Part shown: positions 1 through 27,940 of the stretch, one piece after another
How positions within the stretch are numbered: the stretch's first letter is position 1
How the letters are laid out: each line of letters starts with the position of its first letter
Assembly: GCA_021789595.1 (NCBI GenBank)
Contig: JAJYJJ010000004.1
Coordinates: forward strand, 66,617-130,616
Length of the DNA stretch: 64,000 nucleotides
Origin: Nitrospirota bacterium
GTDB lineage: Bacteria > Nitrospirota > Thermodesulfovibrionia > UBA6902 > JAJYJJ01
Direction of reading: 5' to 3'
Program-made: the position numbers and the translations under genes
The notes under the pieces: generated by a model
Told to the model about the DNA's origin: nothing
What the model saw: the letters and a program-made list of their open reading frames with translations, nothing else
Databases searched by the model: none

Positions 1-1
1 G

Positions 2-169
2 ATAAAAAGATCGATAATCAAACTGCTTAGGTCATACGAAGAGGTAGATGAAAATATAAGGAAAAAGTTGCAGTCCTATTCGAAAAAAATCGTTGAAGGC
101 AGCCCTGAATGGGATGTCCTCTACCAGAAGTTCTTACATGAAGAGGAGGCGAAAAGGGGCTTTGAGTGA
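2..169 (+). CDS. 3' end of an upstream gene of unknown function (C-terminal fragment ...SPEWDVLYQKFLHEEEAKRGFE*)
   Basis: Open frame runs from the window edge to a TGA at 167-169. There is no recognisable domain. The stop overlaps the GTG start of the next gene. Confidence 0.3.
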   Translation: MKRSIIKLLRSYEEVDENIRKKLQSYSKKIVEGSPEWDVLYQKFLHEEEAKRGFE

Positions 170-2190
170 GCTGGAGTTCTGTATCCCCCTATAATAATCC
201 TTTTGCAAGGTATATCTTCCCACTAATCATCCTATCCCTGTATTCAGGGTTTATCCTTAAGGTTCCTGAACGGTTCCCCTATCCATGGATGGTTATAACA
301 GGTATTACAGCCATCCTCGCGGTAACAGCCTATTTGATAAATAAAGGCAGGTCATTCAGGCCGGAGCTTTACCTTCTTTCCTCCGTCTTCCTATGCCTTG
401 GCACAGTTATAAACATGGTAGGGAAGCCTTGGCTGCCATGGGCATATATCCCTGTTGCAGCTATTATAGCTGTCGTCTTCAACCTGAGGGTTATCCCTCT
501 GTCCTTTGTACTGATTACAATCCTTAACAGGGGAATCCCCTATAGATGGGAAAGGGCAGAGGCTGCTGTGTTTTATGCATCCTTGCTGATATTGCCCTTT
601 GTTATATCCGGGTTTCTCAGCGCAGAACGCAAGAAAAAGGAGGGATTTCAGAGAGACCTTGATCGCATAAAGGCAGAGGCTCATGGGCTTGATATGCATG
701 GAGATAGGGCGCTTGGCTCATTTATTGATGAAAGACATCTTTCACACCTTGTCAGTTCAACGCTTGAGCTTGACAGCGAGCTTACAGAGATTGTTGAACT
801 TGTTGGCATATCCACATCGTCTGATTTTTCAGGTTATTTTTTCTATGAGGGCGATTCCCTCGTTCTCAAGGCATCTTCAGGAAGGTCTTATCCAAAAAAC
901 AGGATCCCGATAGGCGAAAGCTACCTGTCCCTTATTGTGAAGGGAAGGATACCTGTATTGCTTTCAGGATTAAAGGGCAGGCCATTTAATCTCGGTTATG
1001 ACAACACATCTGAGATAAGTTGCTTTCTCGGCGTTCCTGTCCTCGACAGTGGTCTCATTTATGGCGTCCTTGCAATAGACAGTTTAAGGGACAATGCCTT
1101 TGGCGACAGGGAAAAGGATGTCCTTAATCTCTTTGGAAGGCAGATAATCCAGGCACATAAGAGGGCGTCAATACATAGCCAGATAGACAGTTCTGCAATG
1201 GGTTTTAAGGCACTCTACGAGGCGACCTCTGAGCTTAGCTCTGCGGAGTTGAGATTCTCCGATATAACAGAGAAGATTGTTTCCATAGCAGCAGAGATTG
1301 CTCAACCATGCTGTGTTGTGCTGTTTCTTGTTAAAGGCAATGGCCTTGAGGTGGCATCGAAGGTTGGCCTTGATATAAAGGATAAGGAATATACAGCAGA
1401 CGGAACCCTGCTTGAGTGGATAATAAGTAACAGGCAGTCCCTCACTTTTTCTGACATGGCAGAGAAGGATAGGAAAATATTCCCCTTTAAGGTCAAGGAT
1501 ATGAAGTCATTTCTCGGCTTACCATTGACATACGAAGACGAGGTCATTGGAATCCTTACGGTTTTATCGCAGCAGGCAGGGGCATTTCGTTATCAGCAGA
1601 GCCATCTCCTCGGCATCCTCACCAACCATGCTGCAATAGCCCTTGCAAATGCGAGGCTTCACCTCGAGGTAAAGAGGATTGCAATAACAGACGGCCTTAC
1701 AGGGCTTTTCAATCACAGACATTTCCAGGAATGCCTTCAACAGGAATTTGAGCGTCTTGGGAGGTTTTCAGAGCCACTCTCGCTTATGCTTCTTGACATC
1801 GACCATTTTAAAAAGGTAAATGATACATATGGCCATCCTGCTGGAGATGCTGTATTAAAGGGTATTGCACAGATACTCAGAGCAACCTTGAGGGCGGTGG
1901 ATATCCCTGCAAGATATGGCGGCGAGGAATTTGCCGCTATACTTATAGGGACAGACTCTTCAGGCGCAAAGAACATGGCGGAAAGACTCAGAAAGACTGT
2001 TGAGAAGACCGTTTTTCCTGTAGATGGAAGGCCGCTGAAGGTGACGATGAGCATAGGTATATCGAGCTATCCGTCAGATGCCAGGAAAAAGGAAGAACTC
2101 ATTGAAAAGGCAGACCAGGCGATGTATCATGCAAAGAAAAGTGGCAGAAATCATAGCTATCTCTGGAGTGAGATAAGCAGAGAGTCATAG
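166..2190 (+). CDS. membrane-anchored diguanylate cyclase (N-terminal TM helices, GAF-like domains, C-terminal GGDEF)
   Basis: GTG start at 166. Hydrophobic N-terminus. C-terminal GGDEF signature 'RYGGEEFAAIL' with an upstream 'DIDHFKKVNDTYGH' motif typical of diguanylate cyclases. Confidence 0.85.
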   Translation: MSWSSVSPYNNPFARYIFPLIILSLYSGFILKVPERFPYPWMVITGITAILAVTAYLINKGRSFRPELYLLSSVFLCLGTVINMVGKPWLPWAYIPVAAIIAVVFNLRVIPLSFVLITILNRGIPYRWERAEAAVFYASLLILPFVISGFLSAERKKKEGFQRDLDRIKAEAHGLDMHGDRALGSFIDERHLSHLVSSTLELDSELTEIVELVGISTSSDFSGYFFYEGDSLVLKASSGRSYPKNRIPIGESYLSLIVKGRIPVLLSGLKGRPFNLGYDNTSEISCFLGVPVLDSGLIYGVLAIDSLRDNAFGDREKDVLNLFGRQIIQAHKRASIHSQIDSSAMGFKALYEATSELSSAELRFSDITEKIVSIAAEIAQPCCVVLFLVKGNGLEVASKVGLDIKDKEYTADGTLLEWIISNRQSLTFSDMAEKDRKIFPFKVKDMKSFLGLPLTYEDEVIGILTVLSQQAGAFRYQQSHLLGILTNHAAIALANARLHLEVKRIAITDGLTGLFNHRHFQECLQQEFERLGRFSEPLSLMLLDIDHFKKVNDTYGHPAGDAVLKGIAQILRATLRAVDIPARYGGEEFAAILIGTDSSGAKNMAERLRKTVEKTVFPVDGRPLKVTMSIGISSYPSDARKKEELIEKADQAMYHAKKSGRNHSYLWSEISRES

Positions 2191-3248
2191 ACATCATCCA
2201 CTGAGATCTCTTTCAGACATCTAACACCGGTCTTACACCTCGGAGTATAGCCAAATTTTGTGCATGGGCTGCAGGGCAGATGCCTGTTTATTGTTACATG
2301 CCTTTTGTCTCTTGGGGCCCATTTTTCCTCGATGCTAGAGCCAAAAAGGCAAACAGTTGGAGTGCCTACACCATAAGCAATGTGCATTATTCCAGAATCA
2401 GCAGTAATCAGGGCAGATGAATTAGCAATTACAGCCGTTGTCTTTAAGAGGTCTGTCCTGCCGACAAGGTCTAATACACGGCTGTTTATCAAAACGATCC
2501 TTTCTGAATCCCGAAGCTCTGCTTTGCCGCCAATGAGTATCACTTTATATCCATCATTAGAGAGCCTCATGGAAAGCTCGGCAAATCTATCAGTGCCCCA
2601 TCTTTTTTCCATCACAGATGCCCCTGTGAATATTGTGACCACATCCTGCCTCTGTGCCTCTATGGTATTTTTCGCCCATGAGTTTATGTTCTCTGGGACA
2701 CGGATGAACGGCTCATCAGGATTAAAGTCTCCTGCAGGACCCAAGAGAGGGCCGATCAGGTTTAAAAAACTGTATACCTCATAGTCAGAATGACTGTATG
2801 GAATCTTATGTGTAAAAAGCCTCTCACGCTCATTGGTTGCAAAGCCTATCCTTACAGGCGCCTTTGTGAGATAGGCAACAACAGCAGAAAGCCTGTGCCA
2901 CTGCTCTGTATCAATGACTACATTGTATTTGTTTTTGAGGCATCTAAAAATGTCAAACCCTCTGTCATAAAGATAAATTTTGTTTATAGAATTTGAAAGT
3001 CTGAATATGTCTGCATTTCTTTTTTCAGCGAGGATGTCAATAGATGTGCCTGGAAGATTCTCTTTTAGCGTCTGAATTGCAGGCAGAAGAAGCACCGCAT
3101 CGCCGATGCCGCCAGGGCGGATGATGATAATGCGATTTATATTTCCTACAGTATTTTTGGAGGCATAGATAAATCGTATTAAGCTAATCAGTAAGGGTCC
3201 AAAGATTGCATCTAATATCTTTAATGCCTTATTATTCTTGAAAGTCAT
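2157..3248 (-). CDS. glycosyltransferase family 9 (ADP-heptose:LPS heptosyltransferase-like)
   Basis: 'RIIIIRPGGIGDAVLLLPAIQTLKENLPG' N-terminal motif characteristic of GT9 heptosyltransferases. The ORF track begins at a TTG at 3317. The internal ATG at 3248 avoids overlap with the upstream gene and is preferred. Last gene of the pilin/glycosylation operon; its 3' end is convergent with and overlaps the GGDEF gene by 34 nt. Confidence 0.7.
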   Translation of the reverse strand: MTFKNNKALKILDAIFGPLLISLIRFIYASKNTVGNINRIIIIRPGGIGDAVLLLPAIQTLKENLPGTSIDILAEKRNADIFRLSNSINKIYLYDRGFDIFRCLKNKYNVVIDTEQWHRLSAVVAYLTKAPVRIGFATNERERLFTHKIPYSHSDYEVYSFLNLIGPLLGPAGDFNPDEPFIRVPENINSWAKNTIEAQRQDVVTIFTGASVMEKRWGTDRFAELSMRLSNDGYKVILIGGKAELRDSERIVLINSRVLDLVGRTDLLKTTAVIANSSALITADSGIMHIAYGVGTPTVCLFGSSIEEKWAPRDKRHVTINRHLPCSPCTKFGYTPRCKTGVRCLKEISVDDVYDSLLISLQR

Positions 3249-3276
3249 TTTGTAATAAGATAATAAATGTGTATAA

Positions 3277-4323
3277 TTAGTGATAAAATTTTTTGACTTC
3301 GAGCAAGGCAGCCTCAAATTTTTCTTTACTTTTCCTTATGTCGAATTGTTTTGCAGTTTCATAGGCATTATGCAAAATCCTTGAATCAATAATCCTTGAA
3401 TTTATTGTTTCCGAGATTTTTTTAACTAATCCCTTATCATCGCCGATAGGAACAACAATTGCATTATACCCATCAGTAACATATGGGACTGCAGGAGTTG
3501 TTATAACTAAGCAGCCGCAGGCCATAGCCTCAAGAGGGAACAAACCAAATCCCTCGTAGCGCGAGGGGTAAAGGAAGATGTCAGCACTGCTTAATATTCT
3601 TCGCATAACATTATCTTCTGGAGAACCGAGATATCTTGTTGTGCATGGTAAGATATTGTTATATAGTTCATCGCCGCATACCCATACCTCTAATCTATCC
3701 TTAAAATCTACACATAGCTTCTTAAGGACATTGATTGTAATATCAAAACCTTTTCTGTAATGATCACCTCTTGAGAGGATGAATATCGATTTCCTTTCTC
3801 CTTTCTGCTGTACCAAATCAGGGTCGGGGTCACAATAAAACTTATCCATATCTATGCCAGTAGTAGCCGTTATAACTTTTGTTGCGCCATAGTTATCCTG
3901 GAGGGTCTTACTTAATACCTCAGAGTCAGAGATAACACACCCTTTCTTTAACCGTAAGAAAATGAAATATAGCATTTTAATAAGTAATCTAACAAACCTG
4001 TTTTTATAGTACTCAGTATCGTGGGCCTGGGCAAGATAAATGACATTATTTCTCACCCCAACAAACAGGGAAAGATGTATGATGTCTACGATAACAATAT
4101 CCGAATCGAAATCTTTGATTAATCCATATAGCAATGTCCCTATCCTTGTTGGCAATGGTATATGGTTTAGTTCGACTGAGGGATTTATATCAAAGATTGT
4201 ATCAAATTTATCGATATAGAATTTAACCTCATGCCCCCTGTCAACAAGATAATTAGCATATTCAATTACTACCCTATCCCCTCCACGATTCAATAGAGAA
4301 TACCTTATGAATGATATTTTCAA
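3277..4323 (-). CDS. glycosyltransferase family 4 (GT-B, retaining)
   Basis: C-terminal 'EGFGLFPLEAMACGCLVITT' motif typical of GT4/GT1 glycosyltransferases. 348 aa. Confidence 0.8.
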   Translation of the reverse strand: MKISFIRYSLLNRGGDRVVIEYANYLVDRGHEVKFYIDKFDTIFDINPSVELNHIPLPTRIGTLLYGLIKDFDSDIVIVDIIHLSLFVGVRNNVIYLAQAHDTEYYKNRFVRLLIKMLYFIFLRLKKGCVISDSEVLSKTLQDNYGATKVITATTGIDMDKFYCDPDPDLVQQKGERKSIFILSRGDHYRKGFDITINVLKKLCVDFKDRLEVWVCGDELYNNILPCTTRYLGSPEDNVMRRILSSADIFLYPSRYEGFGLFPLEAMACGCLVITTPAVPYVTDGYNAIVVPIGDDKGLVKKISETINSRIIDSRILHNAYETAKQFDIRKSKEKFEAALLEVKKFYH

Positions 4324-4357
4324 TATCTTATCCTCCTATATTTTTCCCATTTCCACG

Positions 4358-5212
4358 TTATTTAGAGTAGATAATTATAGCTAATATTATAATCCACAAT
4401 GATATTGTTGTGGCCAATTGCCTATCTCGGTATATCGCCTCTGTAGGGTCGCCTAACCCTGTTTTTGAGAGCAATATGTATCTAAAAAGCCCAAAGGTTA
4501 TGATGGGGATTGTATAGAATAGACCTTTTGGTTGTTCTATTGAATATAGGCCATATGCGATGAGAGAGGCTGCTCCTGAGATCCACAGGATACCGTCAAG
4601 AAAGCCTGCAGGGTATGATTTAATGCCCATTCTGTGGGCCTCAGGATTTGCATTTATGCTACGGGTCTCACCAATCCTTTTCCCTGCTGCCAGCAATAGA
4701 GAAAGCAGAAAGATACTCAAGAAAAGCCATTTTGATATCTCGATATTAAAGGCTGCTCCTCCTGCCATAACACGGATCACAAAGCCAGAGGCAATGGCAA
4801 ATATATCTAAAAGCACTATGTCTTTAAGGTAAAAGGAATAACAGAGCTGTAGGACAAGATATCCGAACAGATATAGGGCAAATATTTTAGAGACATTGAG
4901 TCCGATAATCACCGATGACACAAAAAGCATGCCTGCGAGGATATGGGCATCTCCTAAAGAAACCTTGCCTGAGGCTATTGCCCTGTTCTTTTTTTTCGGA
5001 TGATTTCTATCAAAGGGCATATCCTTAATATCATTGATTATGTAAGATGCACTTGCCATAAATGAAAAGGAGGAAAATACCGGTATGAATCGCAGGATTA
5101 TTTCGGTGTCGAGTATCTTACCGGCGAAGAAAGGTGCTGAGAATACAAGGAGATTTTTTATCCAGTGTTTCGGCCTGAGGAGAGACAGATAATCACTAAT
5201 TCTTTGTTTCAT
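4358..5212 (-). CDS. UbiA-family prenyltransferase, decaprenyl-phosphate phosphoribosyltransferase-like (polyprenyl-phosphate pentose synthase)
   Basis: Multi-TM protein with an NDxxDxxxD motif ('INDIKDMPFDRNHPKKKNRAIASG') typical of Rv3806c/UbiA-like 5-phosphoribosyl-1-pyrophosphate:polyprenyl-phosphate transferases. Confidence 0.7.
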   Translation of the reverse strand: MKQRISDYLSLLRPKHWIKNLLVFSAPFFAGKILDTEIILRFIPVFSSFSFMASASYIINDIKDMPFDRNHPKKKNRAIASGKVSLGDAHILAGMLFVSSVIIGLNVSKIFALYLFGYLVLQLCYSFYLKDIVLLDIFAIASGFVIRVMAGGAAFNIEISKWLFLSIFLLSLLLAAGKRIGETRSINANPEAHRMGIKSYPAGFLDGILWISGAASLIAYGLYSIEQPKGLFYTIPIITFGLFRYILLSKTGLGDPTEAIYRDRQLATTISLWIIILAIIIYSK

Positions 5213-6932
5213 TCAGTCTCTTTATCAGTTTTCTTGCGGGGTTTGAGAAATATTCATTCGGGGACAATTCAATTGCCTTTTTAAAGTATTCAATTGCCCT
5301 TTTTTTCTCTCCGAGGGCTAAATAGAATTGGCCTGTTCGATATAGATAAAGACCATTCCTGTCAATATCATAGAGCTGCTTTAGGTAGGAGATAATCTCC
5401 GTGTAGAATCGCTTCTGTTTATCCAGGTTCTTTTCTTCCATGAGTTGATTCTCAGTGATCTTTATAACCTTCTGGAGTATCTCTACGGATAGCTGAGGGG
5501 TTGGTTTTTTCTCTAAGAGCCGTAGATACTCCTCTTTTGCCTCTTCAGGCTTCCTTTGCATTGATAAAGTTATGATGTTCATGGACGGCACTTCTTTATA
5601 CTTCACATTTCCTGCAAGCCTTTTAGCTATCCTAAACTGTTCTGATGCCTCTTTGACCTTCCCATTCCTCAATAAGGTAAGACCATAATCGTTTCTTGCT
5701 GCGGCAAAATTTGGAGACTTTTTGACTGTATCTGAGAACAGTGTAAGGTTGCTCTGCCAGACAATATTGCGGTTTACTGTTATTGCAGCAGATGCTATCA
5801 ACAGGATTGCTAATGCCCCGTATATTAGTTCTTTTTTCCACGGTATGCGGTTAATCAGCAATACTATGAGAACAGATACCCCGAAGCTTGATATATAGAG
5901 GTATCTCTCTGCCAACGGAGTCCATGCCATCTTTGACAGGGCAACAGGGATTGCTACTATAAAAAATGGTATAGAAGAGAGGAAGAGGAATGATGATAAT
6001 GTCCTTCGTCTGAGGAATAGATATAGGGCAACCACCGAGGCAATTATTCCAAACCAGAAATAAAGTGTTCTGTTTATCTCTATAATGCCGAAATTAAGGG
6101 GAAGTGGTATGAAGAGCTTCTTGATGTAAAAGCCAAATGCCTTTATGGCACCGCTGATGCTTATTAGGAGACTGCCATTATCTACAGCCCTTGCTGCTGT
6201 TTCAACCCCTGTATCAGCGATATAACCGGAGGCAATGGTTCGCATCAGAAAATATACAGCAGTCATGAACAGAAAAGGAAGAAAAAGCCTGAACCGCCTC
6301 TCAATAACAATGTCTTCGATATGTCGTTCCTTTAAGATAAGGAATAATCCAATTACAGGCAAAAGCCCTATGGCAACCTCCTTTGAGAGAAGTCCCATAA
6401 GATATAATAGAGCAGATATCCAGCACCAGAGGTCATTTTCTATCCCTTTTTTAAGGAAGACCAGAAAAGACATAAATACAAACATCCCTGCAAGCACATC
6501 TGTCCTTCCTGAAATCCAGTTCACAGGCTCTGTATTTACAGGATTGATGATAAAAAATATAGAGGCGAGCATCGGGATATATGGATCAGCAGCAATCCTG
6601 AATATCCTTAACAACTCTTTAACTATGAAAAAGATTAGAACACCATTTGCTGTATGAATAAGCATATTATTAAGGTGCATAAAGGATGCACTGCAGTCAA
6701 ACACGAACCTGTCGAAGAGAAAGGTCAGCGCCAGTAGCGGGCGGTAATAATAGATGGGGTTTCCTGGGAAGAAGATACCCTTCCAATCTACATGATAGGT
6801 ATTCAGTAGGTTTGTTATCATCATGTGGTCATCGACAGTATTGACCTGCCCAAATATAGACGGGTAATACACACCGAGAGAGATGAAGATGATGAACAGG
6901 ATCTTGTATCTGTCAGAAAGCTCAGTCCTCAT
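5196..6932 (-). CDS. GT-C fold membrane glycosyltransferase with C-terminal TPR repeats (TMTC/PMT_2-like; TfpW-like candidate protein O-glycosyltransferase)
   Basis: N-terminal multi-TM domain (about 400 aa) with a first-loop 'VDDHMM' acidic motif and 'YYYRPLLALTF...HLNNMLIHTANGVLIFF' (DUF1736/TMTC-like pattern), followed by TPR-like repeats ('ALGEKKRAIEYFKKAIELSP'). Overlaps neighbouring genes by 11-17 nt, so it is operonic. Confidence 0.6.
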   Translation of the reverse strand: MRTELSDRYKILFIIFISLGVYYPSIFGQVNTVDDHMMITNLLNTYHVDWKGIFFPGNPIYYYRPLLALTFLFDRFVFDCSASFMHLNNMLIHTANGVLIFFIVKELLRIFRIAADPYIPMLASIFFIINPVNTEPVNWISGRTDVLAGMFVFMSFLVFLKKGIENDLWCWISALLYLMGLLSKEVAIGLLPVIGLFLILKERHIEDIVIERRFRLFLPFLFMTAVYFLMRTIASGYIADTGVETAARAVDNGSLLISISGAIKAFGFYIKKLFIPLPLNFGIIEINRTLYFWFGIIASVVALYLFLRRRTLSSFLFLSSIPFFIVAIPVALSKMAWTPLAERYLYISSFGVSVLIVLLINRIPWKKELIYGALAILLIASAAITVNRNIVWQSNLTLFSDTVKKSPNFAAARNDYGLTLLRNGKVKEASEQFRIAKRLAGNVKYKEVPSMNIITLSMQRKPEEAKEEYLRLLEKKPTPQLSVEILQKVIKITENQLMEEKNLDKQKRFYTEIISYLKQLYDIDRNGLYLYRTGQFYLALGEKKRAIEYFKKAIELSPNEYFSNPARKLIKRLNETKN

Positions 6933-7905
6933 TTGCGATCTCGGTAAATAGTTCCTCGAGCCCTTTCCTTACAGGCTCAATCATCTGTATGGATGTCTCT
7001 TTATCCTTTATGACTTCAGACAAGACAGATTCCAGATCCTCCTGTTTTATAATACATGTTGAAAATAATCCCCCCTTGCCTCCCTTTACTAAAAGAGGGG
7101 AGGGGGAATTATCAGGTGAAAAATCTTTAGTTAGCTCTATATCTTCACTTATAGTTTTAAAGAAATTTGCCATATGTCCGGATATAGTGTTGAATGTCAG
7201 AAGGTAGCCTTTGATCCCCTTTGCCATTATGTCCCTTATGGATTCTACAAGCCTGAGCTCTCCTTTTACAATAATCCCAACCCTGTCGCATATTGTCTCT
7301 ATGTCATTCAATATATGGGTGGACATAAATACGCATTTGCCTTTAGACTTTAGATCAAGGATTATGTCCCTGACAAGGATTCTTCCTATAGGGTCAAGGC
7401 CGCTCATCGGTTCGTCCAGTATAAGAATATCTGGGTCATGGATAAGACATTGGGCAAGCCCCAATCTCTGCACCATGCCTTTTGAATAGCCCTTTATCGG
7501 CCTTTTCCTTGCATCATAGAGGTCAAGCAGTTTCAAAAGCCTATCTGAACCTTCAAGAATCGCATCAGCGCTCATCTTAAATGTCCTGCCGACAAAGGAA
7601 AGAAGTTCCTCGCCTGTTAGATAATCATAGAAGCTCGGATTTTCTGAAAGATAACCAGCCATCTTTTTATAACTTAATGATGTCCCTGCAATTCCATTGA
7701 TATAGAATTCTCCTGATGTTGGATAGATAAGGCCCATAAGGAGCTTGATGGTTGTAGTTTTCCCTGCACCGTTTGGCCCAAGAAAGCCAAATACTTCTCC
7801 CTTCTGAACATCGAGGTTCAGGTCTTTGAGTGCATCCACATGTTTGCCTTTTTTACCCTTATATGTTTTACTCAGGCCTTCTGTCTTTATTGCTGTGTTC
7901 AACAT
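6922..7905 (-). CDS. ABC transporter ATP-binding protein (ABC-2 exporter ATPase) with a C-terminal extension
   Basis: Walker A 'GPNGAGKTTT', signature 'YSKGMVQRLGLAQ', Walker B 'ILILDEPMSGLD'. Likely start at internal Met 'MLNTAIKTEGLSKTY' (7905) rather than the ORF-track start at 7953. Confidence 0.85.
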   Translation of the reverse strand: MLNTAIKTEGLSKTYKGKKGKHVDALKDLNLDVQKGEVFGFLGPNGAGKTTTIKLLMGLIYPTSGEFYINGIAGTSLSYKKMAGYLSENPSFYDYLTGEELLSFVGRTFKMSADAILEGSDRLLKLLDLYDARKRPIKGYSKGMVQRLGLAQCLIHDPDILILDEPMSGLDPIGRILVRDIILDLKSKGKCVFMSTHILNDIETICDRVGIIVKGELRLVESIRDIMAKGIKGYLLTFNTISGHMANFFKTISEDIELTKDFSPDNSPSPLLVKGGKGGLFSTCIIKQEDLESVLSEVIKDKETSIQMIEPVRKGLEELFTEIANED

Positions 7906-8746
7906 TCCCTCCAAATGCAAATTTGCTCGTTGTCCGTATTTCCCCCTTTTCACTTATGTAAAATCTTCCTCCATAAGGGTCTTCAGGTATCTTTTTTATT
8001 ATACCTTTATCAGTCAGTTCTTCGATGTTCGATGGTTTACGGTGATAAAGCTCTTCAAACTTCTTTTCTCCTTTTTCTAAAAAGGCGACAGCCTCAAGTG
8101 CCTTCAGCCTAATTTCGAGTGTCTGCTTGACCTTTTGATTCCATGTCTTATCTATCATGAACTTCAGAAAGGAGATGGCAATCCCTGTCTCATCGGATTC
8201 GTATAAAAACCTTGCAGCAAGATTGGTATAGAGCGAGTCGCCTGTGATCCTTGCTGCCTGTTCCATATATTGAGCCGCCTTCTTATAGTCCTTTAAAAAA
8301 TAAAAGTTATTAAACCCTAAAAAAAATGGCAGATAGAAATCCCATGTCCTGTATTTAAGTCCCCTTTCAAGCAGATAATCCACTTCTTTTATCCTCCCAA
8401 GTCCCCATGTAAAGACTGCCTCTGAGAAATAGTAGGAGTCTATGTTATATGGGTCTATGTATGTTGATGCATCGAGGAATCTATACATATTGAAGTATTC
8501 TATATCCTTTTTAGCAAAGGGTTTTTCTGTGTCAAACTTGCCGCCGTAGTATGTAATTACCTTAAAGAACAGCCACTCGCTTATAAGTGGCTTATACTCC
8601 ATGGCAGCAATCCGCAGAATCTGCTTTTGCGGCAGGTAGCCGAGCTTTTCCTCAGCGGGTTTTCCTGAGATATAGGATATTAGCCTACCGTAGATAGGGA
8701 TAATCAGTATTAAAGAGGCAAGCATTACAGCAATAATTCTTTTCAT
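7868..8746 (-). CDS. hypothetical membrane-anchored or secreted protein
   Basis: N-terminal hydrophobic segment 'MKRIIAVMLASLILIIPIY'. No recognisable catalytic motif. Sits between the pilin and the ABC ATPase in the same operon. Confidence 0.45.
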   Translation of the reverse strand: MKRIIAVMLASLILIIPIYGRLISYISGKPAEEKLGYLPQKQILRIAAMEYKPLISEWLFFKVITYYGGKFDTEKPFAKKDIEYFNMYRFLDASTYIDPYNIDSYYFSEAVFTWGLGRIKEVDYLLERGLKYRTWDFYLPFFLGFNNFYFLKDYKKAAQYMEQAARITGDSLYTNLAARFLYESDETGIAISFLKFMIDKTWNQKVKQTLEIRLKALEAVAFLEKGEKKFEELYHRKPSNIEELTDKGIIKKIPEDPYGGRFYISEKGEIRTTSKFAFGGNVEHSNKDRRPE

Positions 8747-8773
8747 AAGGTTTTATGGGTATAATAATAGATA

Positions 8774-8992
8774 TTATGGATATTCCAGATAGTCAGCATA
8801 ATACCATTCCATCATTGCCTTTAAGTTCCTCAAGTCGCTTTGAGCTGCTGCATTATATGCCTTCATTTTATAAGACGAAAACATAGGTAATGCAATTGCT
8901 GCAAGGATAGCTATGATTGCTATGACAACGAGCAGCTCTATGAGAGTAAAGCCCTTATTCCTAAAATTTTTACTATTAGGAGATGTAGACAT
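8774..8992 (-). CDS. pilA: truncated type IV pilin, Geobacter PilA-N (e-pilin)-like, paralog 1
   Basis: Prepilin leader and cleavage/methylation site 'NKG|FTLIELLVVIAIIAILAAIALP'. The mature part is about 58 aa, with about 15% aromatic residues. Strong similarity to the Geobacter PilA core ('FTLIELLIVVAIIGILAAIAIPQF..YRVKAYNSAASSDLRNLK'). Confidence 0.85.
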   Translation of the reverse strand: MSTSPNSKNFRNKGFTLIELLVVIAIIAILAAIALPMFSSYKMKAYNAAAQSDLRNLKAMMEWYYADYLEYP

Positions 8993-9010
8993 GATTTCCC
9001 CCTTCTGATT

Positions 9011-9772
9011 TCACAGCAACTCCCTTCTTCTAAATATAAGGACTGAGATCCCAAGGACTATTATAATATAAAGTATTGCGTATGAAAGGACAGTGAGCAT
9101 ATAAGCAGGAGAGGTTGGAAGGCTGTATATGGCATTGAACTTAAAGTCGAGGGCGGTTAGATTTGGAAAGATATAATAAGCGGTCTTCGATAGATAGATG
9201 CTTGGTGAAGGCAGTTTTGTTCCATGAGGGCTGTTTATGTAATCCATTACAGCCTGTGTCACATTGCCAATGATATAGACCCCCACGGTTGCAAATAGGG
9301 GGAGAAACAGGTTTGTGGAGAAGGATGAGAAAAGGATAGATGCGGATGCTACGATGATTAATGCAATAAATTCAAAAAAGACTGCTGCTATAAAGTTCTC
9401 ATAGGACATCGGGATAGATGATTGATAAAGTCTTGATGCTATTGTTATGCCAATAAGAGAAAAGGCAGAGAGGATGGCAACACCAGAGCCTATAATACCA
9501 GAAAGCCCTAAGAATTTCCCGAGGATAAATGCCTCCCTCGATACAGGCATGGATATAACAGGGTGAGCAAACCTCCTTTCCATATCCCTGTAAACAAGGT
9601 TTACACCGAGGAATATCGTCAGGATAAGGGATACGAATGAGATTATGGAGAGCGATAGGCCGACAGACACCTCTCGAGGTTGTCTCATAGATAAGGAGCT
9701 TATTGCAGGGACAAGGATGATAAAACATAGTATAGAGACCGCTAACAGGGTAATAAATACCTTATCCCTCAT
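9011..9772 (-). CDS. ABC-2 family transporter permease
   Basis: About 6 predicted TM helices, size and hydropathy of ABC-2 permeases. Start placed at internal ATG (9772, 'MRDKVFITLL') because the ORF-track start at 9844 would overlap the upstream terminator hairpin. Confidence 0.7.
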   Translation of the reverse strand: MRDKVFITLLAVSILCFIILVPAISSLSMRQPREVSVGLSLSIISFVSLILTIFLGVNLVYRDMERRFAHPVISMPVSREAFILGKFLGLSGIIGSGVAILSAFSLIGITIASRLYQSSIPMSYENFIAAVFFEFIALIIVASASILFSSFSTNLFLPLFATVGVYIIGNVTQAVMDYINSPHGTKLPSPSIYLSKTAYYIFPNLTALDFKFNAIYSLPTSPAYMLTVLSYAILYIIIVLGISVLIFRRRELL

Positions 9773-9819
9773 GCCGCCTTTAAATGTTATCTTTGCTATC
9801 TCTAAAATAATAACCACCT

Positions 9820-9848
9820 GAAAAAGAAAAGGGGTCGTTGCCAACCCC
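9820..9848 (-). terminator. rho-independent terminator downstream of the pilA-N/pilA-C-like pair
   Basis: Minus-strand hairpin GGGGTTG-GCAA-CGACCCC (7 bp stem, GNRA loop) followed by TTTTCTTTTTC, 26 nt after the stop of the PilA-C-like gene. Confidence 0.55.
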
Positions 9849-9873
9849 TTTTCTAAAGCTTATACTGGATTGA

Positions 9874-10215
9874 CTATAGTGAGTTCCAACCACTAAATGC
9901 CGCTGAAGTACTCACGCTCGGCGAGGCTGATATATTTGTCCCTGTAGTCGCAGCTGTCCAATAGATAGTAGTGGAGTCTGCAGATACGCCAAACTCCCTG
10001 TCTCCATTAAGATGTTTTGAGACCGCTGCATAATGCGTGGTATCATCTATGACGTAAACCTTCACATTGCGTGATGCCTGAAATGTCTGGGAACTACCAG
10101 GGAATGTTATGGTTGTCACATCTGTGCTACTATTCCAGGTACCACCAGCGGCAAATGCTATTGCCGCGCCTAAGGCAAAACTCAATGCAATTACGAGTAT
10201 AATTATCTTCTTCAT
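9874..10215 (-). CDS. small secreted Ser/Thr-rich protein, candidate PilA-C-like partner of the short pilin
   Basis: ATG at 10215 preceded by GGAGG. Signal peptide 'MKKIIILVIALSFALGAAIAFAAG'. The mature part is about 90 aa and Ser/Thr-rich. Starts 13 nt after the pilin stop, mirroring the Geobacter pilA-N/pilA-C arrangement. Confidence 0.5.
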   Translation of the reverse strand: MKKIIILVIALSFALGAAIAFAAGGTWNSSTDVTTITFPGSSQTFQASRNVKVYVIDDTTHYAAVSKHLNGDREFGVSADSTTIYWTAATTGTNISASPSVSTSAAFSGWNSL

Positions 10216-10228
10216 ATCAACCTCCTTT

Positions 10229-10447
10229 TTATGGATAATACTGGAAGTCAGCATAATATGCTTCCATTGCTGTCTTGAAGTTCCTCAGGTCGCTCTCTGC
10301 GGCTGAGTTATATGCCTTTGTCCTGTATGCTGCAAACTGTGGTATTGCAATTGCAGCAAGGATGGCTATAATCGCCACGACCACGAGGAGCTCGATAAGG
10401 GTAAAACCCTTTTCATTGCCCTTCATACGATTGATTGTCTTTAACAT
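10229..10447 (-). CDS. pilA: truncated type IV pilin, Geobacter PilA-N (e-pilin)-like, paralog 2
   Basis: 'NEKG|FTLIELLVVVAIIAILAAIAIPQFAAYRTKAYNSAAESDLRNFKTAMEAYYADFQYYP' is near-identical in its core to Geobacter sulfurreducens PilA. 10 of 58 mature residues are aromatic. Strong GGAGGAGG ribosome-binding site. Confidence 0.85.
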   Translation of the reverse strand: MLKTINRMKGNEKGFTLIELLVVVAIIAILAAIAIPQFAAYRTKAYNSAAESDLRNFKTAMEAYYADFQYYP

Positions 10448-10597
10448 GTCCTCCTCCTTTTTAATAACCGTTTGAACCCTTTACTCCACAAAACTTACCA
10501 CTAAATACTAAATACTGCCTTTTTACACCACCTCCTCTCAATCTGAGTTTGATTCCCATTCGGGGGTTTATGCCTTGATTTCCATATGCAACAATAT

Positions 10598-10613
10598 AGC
10601 AGATTCCATGCCA
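10598..10613 (-). promoter_or_regulatory. candidate sigma54 (-24/-12) promoter upstream of pilA paralog 2
   Basis: Minus-strand TGGCAT-GGAAT-CTGCT. GG and GC elements are at canonical spacing (consensus TGGCAC-N5-TTGCW), about 150 nt upstream of the pilin start. Geobacter pilA is RpoN/PilR dependent. Confidence 0.3.
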
Positions 10614-10828
10614 CGATGCAAGGGGAAAATTAAACAGGATTGAGTGATAGGGGATAATATATAAGGGCTAAGAAATAAAGGGAAAAACGACCTGGGGATT
10701 TTAACAGGCTGCTAATAACAGACAACAATTTATATATTTCCATATACATTTAGCGGCAATTATGACAAATTTTGTCAGTTCCGGGCATATTTTCATTTTC
10801 TTTTTTGCAGATGTTATAATCTATTGCG

Positions 10829-11503
10829 ATGATACCTTACAAGGATGACAATCCCACATCCCATTTCCCGTTTGTAACAATAGCCATTATCCTTATAAAC
10901 AGCATTGTCTTTTTCCTTGTCCCATCCTCAGGGGAGGCAGGAAAAGAGGCGGTGTATGCCTATGGCGCAATACCAATCTATATAATGAGCTTTCAAGGGG
11001 CACAGCCCATTCATCCCTTCCTTACGGTCTTTACATCCATGTTCATGCACGGCAGCATCCTTCATCTCCTCGGCAATATGCTTTATCTCTGGATATTCGG
11101 GGACAACATAGAGGACAGGCTCGGCCATGTGAGATTTATAATCTTTTATCTCATCTGCGGGATTGTCGCTGCTTACAGCTATGCAATAACAGACCCGGCA
11201 TCAAAGATCCCGATGATAGGTGCAAGCGGCGCCATATCAGGTGTTTTGGGCGCATATCTTCTCCTGTTTCCGAAGGCAAAGGTTCACGCCTTGATATTCC
11301 TCGGATTTTTTGTTACGGTCATCAAGATACCTGCGATTCTTGTAATTGGATTCTGGGCTGTGATACAATTCTTAAGCGGCCTTCTGAGCACAGGGCTTCA
11401 TGCCCAGGGTGGCATTGCCTGGTTTGCCCATGTTGGTGGATTTTTGTGGGGTCTTATTACCATAAGGCTGTTTATGATGAGGAAAAGGAGGTATAACTGG
11501 TAA
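10829..11503 (+). CDS. rhomboid family intramembrane serine protease
   Basis: Catalytic 'GASGAISGV' (GxSG) and 'AHVGGF' histidine motif in a 6-TM protein. Confidence 0.85.
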   Translation: MIPYKDDNPTSHFPFVTIAIILINSIVFFLVPSSGEAGKEAVYAYGAIPIYIMSFQGAQPIHPFLTVFTSMFMHGSILHLLGNMLYLWIFGDNIEDRLGHVRFIIFYLICGIVAAYSYAITDPASKIPMIGASGAISGVLGAYLLLFPKAKVHALIFLGFFVTVIKIPAILVIGFWAVIQFLSGLLSTGLHAQGGIAWFAHVGGFLWGLITIRLFMMRKRRYNW

Positions 11504-11506
11504 ACT

Positions 11507-12388
11507 ATGATTGTCCTCTGTCCAAAATGCAAAACGAAGTTGAAGGTTGCTGAAGAAAAGATATCCGATGCAGGCAGCCGTTTTAAATGCCCTAAATGCA
11601 GTACAGTCCTGCTGATTAAAAAGCCGAAAAGGCCTGCTGTTGAGGCAAAGCCCATTGATACTAACACAGTGCTTGTTGCCCATGGAAATCGTGAGATGCT
11701 CATAAAAATAGAGAATGTTGTCAAAAGGGCAGGGTATGCTGTGGAGAGGAGCATGGACGGCATTGACGCCATGGTAAAGATAGACAGGATAAAACCCTTT
11801 CTTACAATAATAGATGTCGCCCTTCCAAAGATATACGGTTTTGAGATATGTAAAAGGATTAAGAGCAGGCATGAGACAAAGGGTATAAAGGTCATCCTTG
11901 TGGCATCTATCTATGATAAAGAGAGGTATAAGCGGGAACCGCAGTCTCTTTATGACGCTGATGACTATATCGAGGGCCATCAGATTGAGAAGCTGTTGAT
12001 TGACAAGATAGGCAGGCTTTCAGGCAAGGTGCAGGCAGGTGAACTGCCAAAGGAACAACCAATGCCGCCTCAGCCGCCAGCAGAAGAAAAGCCTTATCTA
12101 CAGAAGGCAGAGGTATCAGCACCTCCTGAAATCGGTATAGAGAAGATAGAAAAGGCAAAACGCCTTGCAAGGACTATTGTCTCTGATATTACGCTTTATA
12201 ACCCGAAGAAGGTTGAAGAGGCAATAAGGAGGGGTGTGTTCTTCTCTGACTTCTCAGATGAGATAAAGGAAGGCCAGAAACTCTATGACAGCCGTATCCC
12301 TGAGGATGTGAGGGCTGTGGGGGATTTCTACAAAGAGGCCATAGGGAACTTTATAATAAAGAAAAAAAAGGCGATGGGTCTTGCCTGA
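11507..12388 (+). CDS. zinc-ribbon (MJ0042-type CxxC...CxxC) protein with a receiver-like domain lacking the N-terminal acidic pair
   Basis: N-terminal 'CPKCKTKLKV...FKCPKCSTVL' zinc ribbon. Central CheY-like fold ('TIIDVALPKIYGFEICKRIK'). Acidic/Pro-rich linker. Confidence 0.5.
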   Translation: MIVLCPKCKTKLKVAEEKISDAGSRFKCPKCSTVLLIKKPKRPAVEAKPIDTNTVLVAHGNREMLIKIENVVKRAGYAVERSMDGIDAMVKIDRIKPFLTIIDVALPKIYGFEICKRIKSRHETKGIKVILVASIYDKERYKREPQSLYDADDYIEGHQIEKLLIDKIGRLSGKVQAGELPKEQPMPPQPPAEEKPYLQKAEVSAPPEIGIEKIEKAKRLARTIVSDITLYNPKKVEEAIRRGVFFSDFSDEIKEGQKLYDSRIPEDVRAVGDFYKEAIGNFIIKKKKAMGLA

Positions 12389-12407
12389 ACCTGGATGATA
12401 AGAGATT

Positions 12408-12848
12408 ATGAATGGCAGGGTTGTATCGGTTAACATCAGTGAGAAAAAGGGACAGAGGAAAAAGAGGATAGAAAAGGCCCTTGTCGTAGAAGATTTTGGT
12501 ATCAAAGGTGATGCACATGCATCCAGTGAATGGCACAGGCAGGTCAGCCTGCTTGCCATGGAGAGCATAATGAAGATGCAGTCCATGGGATTGGATGTCA
12601 AGCCAGGGGATTTTGCAGAGAACATCACGACTGAGGGTATAGACCTCGTAAATCTTCCTGTGGGCACAAGGCTCTTGATTGGCAATGCCATTGAGGTTGA
12701 GGTAAGCCAGATAGGCAAGGTCTGTCATAGCAGGTGCGCAATATATTATCAGGCAGGTGATTGTGTGATGCCCAAAGAGGGGATATTTGTAAAGGTTATC
12801 AGGGGCGGGATGGTAAAGGAGGGAGACAGGATAACAGTCGTCAGTTGA
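12408..12848 (+). CDS. MOSC domain-containing protein
   Basis: 'VSVNISEKKG...KALVVEDFGIKGDAHAS..WHRQVSLL' MOSC beta-barrel pattern. Adjacent to a molybdopterin gene. Confidence 0.7.
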   Translation: MNGRVVSVNISEKKGQRKKRIEKALVVEDFGIKGDAHASSEWHRQVSLLAMESIMKMQSMGLDVKPGDFAENITTEGIDLVNLPVGTRLLIGNAIEVEVSQIGKVCHSRCAIYYQAGDCVMPKEGIFVKVIRGGMVKEGDRITVVS

Positions 12849-12874
12849 CAGTCATATGAGGACGATTCAGTTAA

Positions 12875-13363
12875 ATGATAAAGGTGGCAGTCTTGACATT
12901 AAGCGATAAGGGTTCAAGGGGTGAGAGGGAGGATTTAAGCGGCCCTGTTATAGCCGAGATGGTTAAAAGGATAGACGGGGAGGTTATCTCATACGAAATA
13001 ATCCCTGATGAAAAGGATTTGATCAAACAGAGGCTTATAAGTCTTTCAGAAAAGGCCGATATAGTTTTTACAACAGGAGGCACAGGCCTGTCTCTGCGTG
13101 ATGTGACCCCTGAGGCAACCATCGCAGTCATAGAGAGGGAGGTGCGTGGCATTGCTGAGGTCATGAGGGCAGAGGGCATGAAGAAGACCCAGAGGGCAAT
13201 GCTTTCAAGGGCGGTTGCAGGGATAAGAAACAAAAGCCTGATTATAAACCTCCCGGGAAGCCCAAAGGCCGTTAGGGAAAACTTAGAGGTCATATTAGAT
13301 GCGCTTCCACATGCAGTAGAAAAGATAAAGGGCGATGAAAAGGAGTGTGCCAGATATGACTAA
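12875..13363 (+). CDS. moaB: molybdenum cofactor biosynthesis protein MogA/MoaB
   Basis: 'KVAVLTLSDKGS...DIVFTTGGTGLSLRDVTPEAT' MoaB/MogA signature (GGTG). Confidence 0.8.
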   Translation: MIKVAVLTLSDKGSRGEREDLSGPVIAEMVKRIDGEVISYEIIPDEKDLIKQRLISLSEKADIVFTTGGTGLSLRDVTPEATIAVIEREVRGIAEVMRAEGMKKTQRAMLSRAVAGIRNKSLIINLPGSPKAVRENLEVILDALPHAVEKIKGDEKECARYD

Positions 13364-25126: not shown

Positions 25127-25544
25127 CTATCAGCTCCTGCTGTTTTTTAAACATCTTCCTTGCCTTATAGGCTGATGCCTCATGGTCATGGCCTAAAAGA
25201 TGAAGGATTCCATGCGCCATGAGCCGGTAAAACTCGTCGTAAAAGGTGCTGCCGTATTGTCTTGCCTGCCTCTTTGCAGCATGTATGTTTATAACAACAT
25301 CGCCCAGGGGTATGTGAGATGCCTGAACAGCCCCCCCTTCGTTCAACGGAAATGAAAGGACATCCGTGGTTTTTCTCTTTCCACGGTAAAGGAGATTTAG
25401 TTTGAGCATCCTGCTGTCGCCAACTAAAAGTATGCTCAACTCAGCCGAGGGCTGCCCTGATAGAGTAAGGGTCTTCTGTGCTGCCCTTTTTATCCTTCTC
25501 AGGTCTGTCCTTATCCGTCTTTGCTGGTTCTTTATGTATACCAT
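25095..25544 (-). CDS. ybeY: endoribonuclease YbeY (rRNA maturation)
   Basis: 'HGILHLLGHDHE' H3xH5xH zinc motif and 'VLSFPL' N-domain motif. Confidence 0.85.
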   Translation of the reverse strand: MVYIKNQQRRIRTDLRRIKRAAQKTLTLSGQPSAELSILLVGDSRMLKLNLLYRGKRKTTDVLSFPLNEGGAVQASHIPLGDVVINIHAAKRQARQYGSTFYDEFYRLMAHGILHLLGHDHEASAYKARKMFKKQQELIDALKKTYRKH

Positions 25545-26994: not shown

Positions 26995-27940
26995 ATGCCT
27001 TTATTATCTCCTGGACGAGTCTATGCCTTACCACATCCTTTTCTGTGAAGTATATAAATTCAATGCCCTCTATGCCCTTTAATATATCCCGAACCTCTAC
27101 AAGACCTGATGCCTTCCCTGTCGGAAGGTCAACCTGTGTTATATCACCTGTTATCACAGTCTTCGAGTTGAAACCAAGCCTTGTAAGAAACATCTTCATC
27201 TGCTCCCCTGTTGTGTTCTGCGCCTCATCGAGTATGATAAAGGAATCATTCAGGGTTCTACCCCTCATAAATGCAAGGGGGGCGATCTCTATTACCCCTC
27301 TTTCAATGAGTTTATTTGCCTTCTCTGCCTCCATCATATCAAAGAGTGCATCGTAAAGAGGCCTCAGATAGGGATTGACCTTTTCATACATGTCGCCTGG
27401 CAGGAATCCGAGTTTTTCTCCTGCCTCTACAGCAGGCCTTGCAAGGAGGATTCTGCCAACCTCTTTTTTTATAAGAGAATTTATAGCCATGGCCATGGCA
27501 AGGTATGTCTTTCCTGTTCCAGCAGGGCCGATGCCAATTACCATGTCATATCTTCTGATGGCCTCGATGTATCTTTTCTGTGTCTCGCTCTTTGGGACTA
27601 TGAATCTTTTTTTGGATGATACGGGGATGGTGTTCAGGAAGAGTTCCTTGATTGATGTGTCTTGTCCTTCTGAGGATGCCTTCAGGGCAAACCTTATGTC
27701 CTCAGGTTTTATAGTATAACCCCTTGAGCTTATCTCGCGGATCTCCTTTACAAGCCTCTCGGCCCTGGCAACAGATTCCTCAGGCCCTTTTATAAAGACC
27801 TTATTACCTCTAATACTGGCCTCTATACCAAGGGTCTCTTCAAGGAGTTTGAGACTCTGCTCTATTCCGCCATAGATGAGGTGAAGCTCCTTATCTTCGC
27901 TGAGATCTAATTCTACTGTTAACGTTTTACTGCCTCCATA
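26972..27940 (-). CDS. phoH: PhoH-like ATPase (possible frameshift or non-canonical start)
   Basis: Walker A 'GIGPAGTGKTYLA' and PhoH C-domain. The N-terminal PhoH-like domain (about 135 codons, 27536-27944) is open in frame but has no ATG/GTG/TTG. An ATG with an upstream GGAGG lies at 27940 in the +1 frame just before an A4 run. Confidence 0.6.
   Translation of the reverse strand, partial: YGGSKTLTVELDLSEDKELHLIYGGIEQSLKLLEETLGIEASIRGNKVFIKGPEESVARAERLVKEIREISSRGYTIKPEDIRFALKASSEGQDTSIKELFLNTIPVSSKKRFIVPKSETQKRYIEAIRRYDMVIGIGPAGTGKTYLAMAMAINSLIKKEVGRILLARPAVEAGEKLGFLPGDMYEKVNPYLRPLYDALFDMMEAEKANKLIERGVIEIAPLAFMRGRTLNDSFIILDEAQNTTGEQMKMFLTRLGFNSKTVITGDITQVDLPTGKASGLVEVRDILKGIEGIEFIYFTEKDVVRHRLVQEIIKAYERYEKR

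Follow-up and report, generated by a model that had tools for sequence, protein, structure and literature searches.

What kind of locus is formed by ten genes that bring two truncated pilins, a transporter of the ATP-binding cassette (ABC) type and several glycosylation enzymes together on one strand, and do these neighbours act on the pilin? The question is raised by a 64-kb stretch of DNA from a Nitrospirota bacterium (GenBank assembly GCA_021789595.1, contig JAJYJJ010000004.1, positions 66,617 to 130,616), which we call the window and whose first nucleotide is position 1; the genes lie on its minus strand, from 10447 down to 2157. A first-pass annotation, made from the letters alone, read them as a single operon of a layout not described for pilus loci, with a four-enzyme glycosylation module acting on pilin through a lipid-linked sugar. 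To judge from gene order and sequence similarity, the region is the counterpart, in a Thermodesulfovibrionales-type metagenome-assembled genome (MAG) of the Nitrospirota, of the Geobacter pilA-N/pilA-C plus xap locus. Only an embedded second pilin and a tail of two glycosyltransferase (GT) genes, GT4 and GT9, are particular to this genome; the layout is otherwise known. The partners conserved with the locus suggest that pilus proteins are glycosylated by products of the neighbouring genes, rather than that a polysaccharide is exported.

How close is the correspondence with Geobacter? Our references were two genomes labelled G. sulfurreducens (AP017912.1 and CP072789.1; loci L083 and L084) and G. 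hydrogenophilus (locus L011). All three have the order pilB-pilT-pilC-pilS-pilR-pilA-N-pilA-C-permease-TPR protein-ATPase-GT-C/TPR-UbiA (TPR, tetratricopeptide repeat), followed by GT2, Wzm, Wzt and GT4 genes. The seven genes downstream of pilR are collinear with those of the window at 34-81% identity, PilA-N and PilA-C divide the pilin between them in the same way, and in a G. sulfurreducens-labelled locus a hairpin likewise follows pilA-C. The order recurs in dozens of species and has a name in the literature, pilA-N/pilA-C then xapABCDEFGH, so that it can no longer be called undescribed. The window differs in that no pilB-pilT-pilC-pilS-pilR genes precede the pilin, a rhomboid gene standing upstream instead; in the second pilin between permease and TPR protein; in its 3' end, which has GT4 and GT9 where Geobacter has GT2, Wzm/Wzt and GT4; and in its host, a Nitrospirota MAG. 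The named relatives of the locus are Nitrospirota or Thermodesulfovibrionales MAGs.

In G. sulfurreducens, pilA-N and pilA-C are GSU1496 and GSU1497, xapABCDEFGH follow, and xapD is GSU1501, an ABC transporter ATP-binding protein. Since the Wzt-type ATPase comes at least eight genes after GSU1497 (pilA-C), xapD must be the first ATPase. We infer from gene order and locus-tag numbering, rather than from the PCA record, that the ATPase of the window is the xapD counterpart; in the G. sulfurreducens-labelled genomes, the first ATPase behind pilA-C shares 48% identity with it. The permease, 34% identical to its counterpart there, would correspond to the first xap permease gene.

Is the order kept outside Geobacter? 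We assembled 80 loci from species-representative genomes, anchored on the 292-aa TPR protein, and mapped the ten window proteins on them; the counts that follow are restricted to loci with enough flanking sequence. The permease stands directly upstream of the TPR protein in 73 of 74 loci, and the ATPase directly downstream of it in 64 of 66. A truncated pilin lies on the same strand, at most 4.2 kb upstream, in 39 of 53 (Geobacterales 21/25, Nitrospirota 6/8, unclassified deltaproteobacteria 8/8, Deferribacterota 2/4, Desulfonauticus 2/2, Desulfurellales 0/5, Campylobacterota 0/1). Downstream, the GT-C/TPR enzyme is found in 30 of 49 loci and UbiA in 35 of 49, GT4 in only 5 of 46 and GT9 in 4 of 46; a pilin between permease and TPR protein occurs in none of 53 other loci. 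The comparison of gene order that the first-pass annotation proposed as a check therefore gives a divided answer: the seven core genes are collinear across phyla, GT4, GT9 and the embedded pilin are not, and of the supposed four-enzyme module only GT-C/TPR and UbiA are kept with the locus. When both flanks are adequate (39 loci), pilin and GT-C occur together in 28, pilin alone in 4 and neither in 7; GT-C without pilin is never seen. Further, the GT-C gene lies between the pilin genes and the permease in four loci (L012, L041, L052 and L079). It is because the GT-C gene tracks the pilin, and sits beside the pilin genes in these four loci, that we favour a pilin-related acceptor over a polysaccharide.

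The ten minus-strand open reading frames (ORFs) of the window have the coordinates and order that the first-pass annotation gave them, and its identifications are borne out by Pfam and NCBIfam matches for the prepilins, permease, ATPase, UbiA, GT4 and GT9. Gene starts were taken from the calls of the source contig, and ribosome-binding sites (RBSs) were inspected for the two pilin genes (pilN1 and pilN2) and pilA-C. From the first pilin to GT9, successive gaps are 13, 56, 18, 27, -35, -11, -17, 34 and 28 nt, i.e. none above 56 nt, on one strand throughout; overlaps of 90 nt, as given in the first-pass annotation, are a product of choosing the longest ORFs, and the called starts give other gaps. 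Two assemblies made independently of each other (L001 from ENA, L002 from Logan) show the identical arrangement, second pilin included, and an assembly artefact is thereby ruled out. On one side a GGDEF/GAF gene converges on the locus and on the other a rhomboid gene diverges from it, and it was correctly noted that genes for type IV pilus assembly are absent: there are none among the large ORFs of the whole window.

Are the ten genes one operon? A sigma-54 type promoter motif, TGGCATGGAATCTGCT (10598..10613, minus strand), lies about 150 nt upstream of the start codon of the first pilin. The strict form of this motif has two matches in the window against 0.42 expected. In a scan of the relatives that left out L083, it was found no more than 350 nt upstream of the pilin in 19 of 46 loci, with a background of 0.004 per 350 nt; it occurs 27 times in 2.45 Mb, and 19 of these 27 are at the pilin-upstream position. 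Many Geobacterales loci have it before the pilin, G. hydrogenophilus L011 does not. The other strict match in the window, TGGCATCGGCCCTGCT (27521-27536, minus strand), lies upstream of a 7TM-HD receptor gene (25441-26994), where a 190-aa ORF begins.

At the other end of the pilin pair, 20 nt after the pilA-C stop, an intrinsic terminator, GAAAAGGGGTTGGCAACGACCCCTTTTC followed by a T-run (about 9821..9853, minus strand), forms a 12-bp GC-rich hairpin with a folding free energy (dG) of -18.9 kcal/mol. Its 76-nt context folds at -22.8 kcal/mol (z = -3.98; 0 of 200 shuffles as good), and the GTG start of the permease comes 4 nt past the T-run. A comparable hairpin with T tail (dG <= -13) follows pilA-C in 28 of 30 loci from several phyla, as against 4 of 90 control windows, and a terminator-like hairpin is also found there in a G. 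sulfurreducens-labelled locus. Given this terminator and the sigma-54 motif, the pilin pair probably forms a separate, attenuated unit, and the single-operon reading is not supported. From these signals, the pair is probably a discrete and highly expressed unit, and the other eight genes are probably transcribed by read-through or from an unseen promoter; the second pilin belongs to this downstream unit. A generic promoter and terminator scan gave no excess of sigma-70-like sites and missed the pilA-C terminator. No RNA family was found by an Rfam scan of positions 1-13000, thus the pilin leader is without a known riboswitch.

The first pilin, the pilA-N homologue (10229..10447, minus strand; pilin2 of the first-pass annotation), is a 72-aa prepilin of 58 aa when mature (N_methyl, 1.4e-10), and is 81% identical to the pilin of the G. 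sulfurreducens-labelled genomes. It was the pilin covered by the PDB search, so that the matches to Geopilin domain 1 (9egp_A, 1.7e-27; 7tgg_A, 1.9e-26; 2m7g/6vk9, 1.2e-23) apply to it alone. Both pilins of the window carry KGFTLIELL, in which FTLIEL comes directly after the Gly that ends the prepilin leader, are 58 aa long when mature and are without a globular domain; Tyr32 is conserved in both. Aromatic residues make up 17.2% of the first and 15.5% of the second, and the largest aromatic-free gap is 22 residues. Both thus show the high aromatic density and the absence of a long aromatic-free gap by which e-pilins are recognised from sequence; the threshold values of this heuristic are those of the literature. 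The pilins of G. anodireducens and G. soli are reported to contain 10.8% aromatics, likewise with a 22-residue gap. Published structures are of PilA-N/PilA-C heterodimer pili, the conductive role of which is disputed.

The "PilA-C-like" call for the next ORF (9874..10215, minus strand) is confirmed. Its 113-aa product combines a Sec-type signal peptide with a beta domain rich in Ser/Thr (27%), and the RBS at its start, 10215, is aaggagg. A profile of 29 sequences, which includes the window ORF and Geobacterales sequences, matches Geopilin domain 2 (9egp_B, 4e-20; 7tgg_a, 4e-14; 6vk9_D, 8.5e-9). As a single sequence the window protein has 9egp_B as its best PDB match, weakly (E = 0.11) and in a full-length alignment, and by tblastn it is 36-37% identical to the PilA-C gene of the G. 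sulfurreducens-labelled genomes (E ~1e-12). A PilA-C-like ORF follows the pilin in nearly all related loci; here it comes 13 nt after the first pilin, which is therefore a split pilin, with a separate, signal-peptide-bearing PilA-C immediately downstream.

The second truncated pilin (8774..8992, minus strand; pilin1 of the first-pass annotation) also has 72 aa (N_methyl, 3.5e-11). It is 66% identical to the first, and its nearest relatives reach only 71%, with none closer in the 80 loci. It has Met at the otherwise conserved Gln23, its own RBS and no PilA-C partner, and is located inside the transporter unit; in the 27-nt gap after it no hairpin is evident by eye, no formal scan having been made there. 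Because it has the same length and the same C-terminal YYAD..YP ending as the first pilin, it appears to be an old lineage-specific duplicate.

What can be said about the two enzymes that stay with the locus? The GT-C/TPR enzyme (5196..6932, minus strand) has 578 aa, with a GT-C fold from residue 1 to about 390 and a TPR domain at about 395-578. By sequence only the TPR part is matched, both in Pfam and in a PDB sequence search, and Pfam on the N-terminal 407 residues gave nothing useful; the multi-span GT-C fold was recognised from structure prediction. Its nearest solved fold is the protein O-mannosyltransferase (PMT) Pmt4, with ALG12, which acts on glycans, scoring almost as high. Asp34-Asp35, in the loop after the first transmembrane helix, is invariant in 43 homologues; the PMT_2 model is reached by 10 of them, but not by the window protein. 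By analogy with PMT and TfpW (see below) its C terminus would be periplasmic, and its fold together with the adjacent UbiA-type synthase suggests a polyprenyl-phosphate-linked donor.

That synthase (4358..5212, minus strand; 284 aa) is a UbiA-family polyprenyl-phosphate phosphoribosyltransferase (UbiA Pfam, 7.5e-25) of the type of decaprenylphosphoryl-5-phosphoribose (DPPR) synthase. It scores 230.7 bits against NCBIfam NF008978, decaprenyl-phosphate phosphoribosyltransferase, for which the equivalog cut-off is 207, and stays below the cut-offs of the sister models NF008977 and NF008976. It carries the Asp-rich motif of UbiA proteins as NDIKDMPFD, is single-domain, and is 43-44% identical to its counterpart in the G. 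sulfurreducens-labelled genomes. Its gene overlaps that of the GT-C/TPR enzyme by 17 nt, and the two co-occur in most related loci. In the mycobacterial arabinan pathway a UbiA protein of this type makes polyprenyl-phosphate-5-phosphoribose from phosphoribosyl pyrophosphate (PRPP). As a phosphoribosyltransferase-type UbiA can make a pentose donor alone, GT4 and GT9 are not needed for a scheme of pilin glycosylation.

GT4 (3277..4323, minus strand; Glycos_transf_1 7.5e-19, Glyco_transf_4 3.2e-8) and GT9, of the heptosyltransferase family (2157..3248, minus strand; Glyco_transf_9 3.2e-34), are lineage-variable accessories. GT9 is under every NCBIfam heptosyltransferase cut-off, and its identification as a TibC/Aah-type protein heptosyltransferase was rejected (E = 3e-4; 19.8 bits, cut-off 200). 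L003 and L004, the closest relatives, lack GT4. Where the window has GT4 and GT9, these two relatives have an NAD-dependent epimerase/dehydratase right after UbiA (L003, 14387-15340; L004, 14263-15276), which could turn lipid-linked ribose into another pentose. Homologues of GT9 directly follow the ATPase in Desulfonauticus (L041, about 11700-12800, 43%) and Hippea (L061, about 2530-3577, 38%), hence GT9 recurs sporadically with the transporter genes in distant lineages.

The transporter itself is a triad. The ABC-2 type permease (9011..9817, minus strand; 268 aa) matches only PF12679 (ABC2_membrane_2, 1.4e-8) and PF12698 in Pfam, not the Wzm family PF01061. The ATPase (6922..7902, minus strand; 326 aa; ABC_tran 3e-27) is similar to the DrrA/GldA/NodI type, yet is under every equivalog cut-off and lacks a Wzt_C domain; GldA as such was rejected, at 176.7 bits against a cut-off of 402.6. 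Between them, the membrane-anchored TPR-like protein (7868..8746, minus strand; 292 aa) belongs to an unnamed family in which the motif DPYGGxFY, close to the C terminus, is invariant. Its structural model (pLDDT 87.6) shows one N-terminal transmembrane helix and a helical domain of TPR-like form, and places the motif on a small hairpin at the C terminus (residues ~231-280); by the positive-inside rule the protein is predicted to face the periplasm. The Pfam model matched by most members of the family is T2SSG, for the pseudopilin GspG; the matches, in the C-terminal segment of 15 of 38 members, are weak and all below threshold (best E = 0.009). DPYGGxFY resembles the DPWG motif of GspG pseudopilins. 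At E <= 1e-30 the family has 230 clusters among 1.84 billion representatives, and among the matches listed almost all full-length members have about 280-300 aa.

How might these parts work together? We consider the chances about even that in this locus a unit for a split pilin precedes a module for periplasmic glycosylation with pentofuranose, with UbiA making the donor, the GT-C enzyme transferring the sugar and the ABC system as candidate flippase. The sigma-54-driven unit would encode a split major pilin, PilA-N as the helix and PilA-C as the Sec-exported globular half, and end at the intrinsic terminator; the conserved module downstream would probably be reached by read-through of that terminator. 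UbiA would then make polyprenyl-phosphate-(5-phospho)ribose from PRPP at the cytoplasmic face, and the lipid-linked pentose may be moved to the periplasmic face by the ABC system, which is the candidate flippase because it is the only transporter in the cluster. The GT-C enzyme would transfer the pentofuranose to Ser/Thr of PilA-C, of PilA-N or of other exported proteins, its TPR domain perhaps holding the protein substrate during transfer. Candidate donor sugars are ribose, arabinose and phosphoribose. GT4 and GT9 would be lineage-specific additions at the variable 3' end. What survives here of the first-pass annotation is the proposal that a periplasmic GT-C enzyme near the pilins draws on a lipid-linked donor, which is reasonable and has gained comparative support; the undescribed layout and the four-enzyme module have not survived, and the single operon is not supported.

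The closest known pilin glycosylation system is that of Pseudomonas aeruginosa group IV pilins, i.e. TfpW with the D-arabinofuranose pathway PsPA7_6245-6251. TfpW, a GT-C enzyme encoded next to pilA, carries a TPR domain at its C terminus and has a DDX motif that is essential; it depends on a DPPR synthase homologue (bioRxiv 10.1101/2020.04.19.049825). The window has a GT-C enzyme with Asp-Asp in the first loop and a C-terminal TPR domain, near the major pilin and next to a homologue of the DPPR synthase Rv3806c; in the four loci mentioned above the GT-C gene lies between pilin genes and permease, as tfpW follows pilA. The window cluster differs in having an ABC-2 system with a TPR partner and a pilin split into two polypeptides. 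Similar in logic (synthase, transporter, GT-C enzyme) are the three-component systems of O-antigen pentofuranosylation, known from Citrobacter youngae O1/O2 (GT136), in which a polyprenyl phosphoribose synthase is combined with a MATE flippase and a GT-C enzyme (PMC11127046). In contrast to these, the window synthase is single-domain without a fused phosphatase, its transporter is of the ABC-2 and not the MATE type, and its GT-C enzyme carries a TPR domain and tracks pilin genes rather than an O-antigen locus; neither a MATE or GtrA/SMR-type flippase nor a phosphoribose phosphatase domain is found in the ten window genes. Wzm/Wzt exporters share the ABC-2 superfamily and the two-gene design of permease and ATPase, but the window permease is PF12679, not PF01061, its ATPase has no Wzt_C, the TPR protein is an obligatory third gene, and Geobacter loci hold a separate bona fide Wzm/Wzt pair further downstream. 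From the PMT family and its TPR-bearing relatives (TMTC) the GT-C enzyme differs in having about 10% sequence identity to them, and its neighbouring donor-synthesis gene suggests a pentose, not mannose.

Several points weigh against pilin glycosylation by this module. The association of the GT-C/TPR gene with the pilin (28 of 32 pilin loci, 0 of 7 pilin-less ones; Fisher p = 2e-5) is uncorrected for phylogeny. In Desulfurellales, Campylobacterota and some Nitrospirota the triad of permease, TPR protein and ATPase stands alone among housekeeping genes, so that its function is not strictly dependent on pilin, GT-C or UbiA. The likeness to TfpW is one of architecture and gene context, not of TfpW sequence comparison, and the DprE1/DprE2-type epimerase, phosphatase and GtrA-like gene of that system have no equivalent here: Pfam and NCBIfam find none of them, nor a MATE flippase, among the ten genes. 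ABC-2 transporters of the Pfam family to which the permease belongs are not known to act as flippases for polyprenyl-phosphate sugars. The literature treats xap genes as exopolysaccharide genes, and the Geobacter cluster runs on into GT2, Wzm/Wzt (with a Wzt_C domain) and GT4 genes. A limited search of the Geobacter literature found no glycan on PilA-N or PilA-C, and one PilA modification, glycerophosphate on Tyr32 (PMC6201914); glycosylation is reported for the Geobacter filaments OmcS and OmcE.

Could the downstream module then be a surface-polysaccharide or lipopolysaccharide (LPS) system? GT-C and UbiA would add pentofuranose side chains to a glycan, as in the Citrobacter O antigens, the ABC system would export or support that glycan, and the neighbourhood of the pilins would reflect nothing but co-regulation of surface structures. 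xapD has been presented as an ATP-dependent exporter on which about half of the exopolysaccharide depends, and xap as required for exopolysaccharide production and cytochrome anchoring, phenotypes reported for G. sulfurreducens only. The continuation of the Geobacter loci just mentioned fits such a system, as do a Wzm/Wzt pair and a sulfotransferase near the relative L003, the GT4 and GT9 added in the window itself, the polysaccharide acceptors on which three-component systems were defined, and the triads without pilins in several lineages. Against such a system, the GT-C/TPR gene is missing at the locus where the pilin is missing, and is placed directly after the pilin genes in four loci. Its GT-C-plus-TPR architecture is that of the pilin-modifying TfpW, and its nearest solved fold is a protein O-mannosyltransferase, though ALG12 comes close; permease and ATPase lack the Wzm family and Wzt_C signatures; and the G. 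sulfurreducens xapD mutant lost PilA, which was undetectable, with OmcS mislocalised (bioRxiv 10.1101/114900). In our opinion a polysaccharide system is possible, if on the unlikely side.

The same mutant invites another explanation, namely that the triad is not a sugar transporter at all and is an ATP-driven machine for handling pilin, which stabilises or extracts the hydrophobic PilA-N or pairs it with PilA-C; the TPR protein would be its periplasmic adaptor and the second pilin a dedicated partner, with GT-C and UbiA serving a separate accessory function. The adjacency of the triad to truncated pilins in most loci agrees with this, as do the weak GspG-like matches of the DPYGGxFY segment, and it is mainly the second pilin, inserted inside the transporter unit in this genome, that keeps the explanation alive. 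The ABC2_membrane_2 family also includes permeases that work with periplasmic partners (NosY, GldF). However, every T2SSG match is below threshold, the triad is far from any pilin in several lineages, we found no precedent for an ABC system as pilin chaperone, and an indirect effect could account for the PilA loss of the xapD mutant; we think this explanation improbable. That the adjacency means nothing, unrelated genes being merely packed on one strand, deserves hardly any credence. The poor conservation of GT4 and GT9 with the locus and the terminator that divides the pilin pair from the remaining genes would agree with it, but seven genes are collinear in dozens of species (Nitrospirota, Geobacterales, Deferribacterota and others), the position of the terminator is conserved, and for these seven core genes the synteny already contradicts chance.

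Pilin glycosylation by the neighbouring module can also be put in a stronger form, to which we would commit ourselves only with much reserve, since we believe it rather unlikely: that the xap region is a dedicated, cross-phylum maturation system for split PilA-N/PilA-C pili, made of a DPPR-synthase/GT-C-TPR pair for pentofuranosylation, perhaps also of other secreted filament proteins, and of an ABC-2/TPR machine of a new kind. The latter may serve as flippase for the lipid-linked pentose or may itself act on the truncated pilin, and may have gained the embedded pilin paralogue in this genome.

Some observations on surrounding genes are to be added. The convergent gene at 166-2190 (plus strand) encodes a GAF-GGDEF diguanylate cyclase and overlaps the 3' end of GT9 by 34 nt (2157-2190). 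A GGDEF gene is also found upstream of the triad in the Desulfurellales locus L060 (2218-3375); such neighbours may point to a link between cyclic di-GMP and the surface module. On the other side, a gene for a rhomboid protease and one for a response regulator that contains zinc-ribbon domains diverge from the pilin promoter region (10829-12388, plus strand), in the position that pilS and pilR occupy in Geobacter; no sigma-54 activator is nearby in the window despite the motif. Just past the left edge of the window, about 4 kb beyond the end of GT9, a gene for a 556-aa PMT_2 (GT-C) protein is seen in L001 (20395-20879), separated from the cluster by the GGDEF gene, two DUF507 genes, rpsR, ssb and rpsF. 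In L083 (1-1600) and L084 (1-1601) a 623-aa TMEM260_N protein is encoded two genes upstream of pilB, with a shikimate dehydrogenase gene between; TMEM260, which we take to be a GT-C protein O-mannosyltransferase family, would make it a second candidate protein glycosyltransferase at the Geobacter pilus locus. Further away in the window, the gene at 44308-46188 (plus strand) encodes 626 aa that include a multihaem domain of the cytochrome c7 type, multihaem cytochromes being the other candidate extracellular electron carriers in organisms with truncated pilins. A competence channel of the ComEC type (domains Competence, DUF4131 and Lactamase_B; 58078-60507, minus strand) makes DNA uptake a possible alternative role of the pilus in this organism.

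What does this mean for the pili concerned? Truncated pilins of the Geobacter type are central to the dispute over whether pili or cytochrome filaments are the extracellular electron carriers, and the xapD mutant has been cited as evidence by both sides, xap having been treated in Geobacter research as an exopolysaccharide exporter for 15 years. Should the neighbouring genes act on the pilin, by modifying or handling it, and not export a polysaccharide, then PilA loss, OmcS mislocalisation and the reduced matrix of the xapD mutant would all have to be interpreted anew, and studies of nanowires would have to control for glycosylation of the pilin. Glycosylation with pentofuranose of the TfpW-like or three-component kind would be extended to anaerobic phyla of metal and sulfur cycling, and a widespread, uncharacterised family of membrane TPR proteins is flagged as tied to an ABC-2 transporter. 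The value of the comparison is not in a new type of locus; it makes the reinterpretation of xap testable in a genetically tractable organism.

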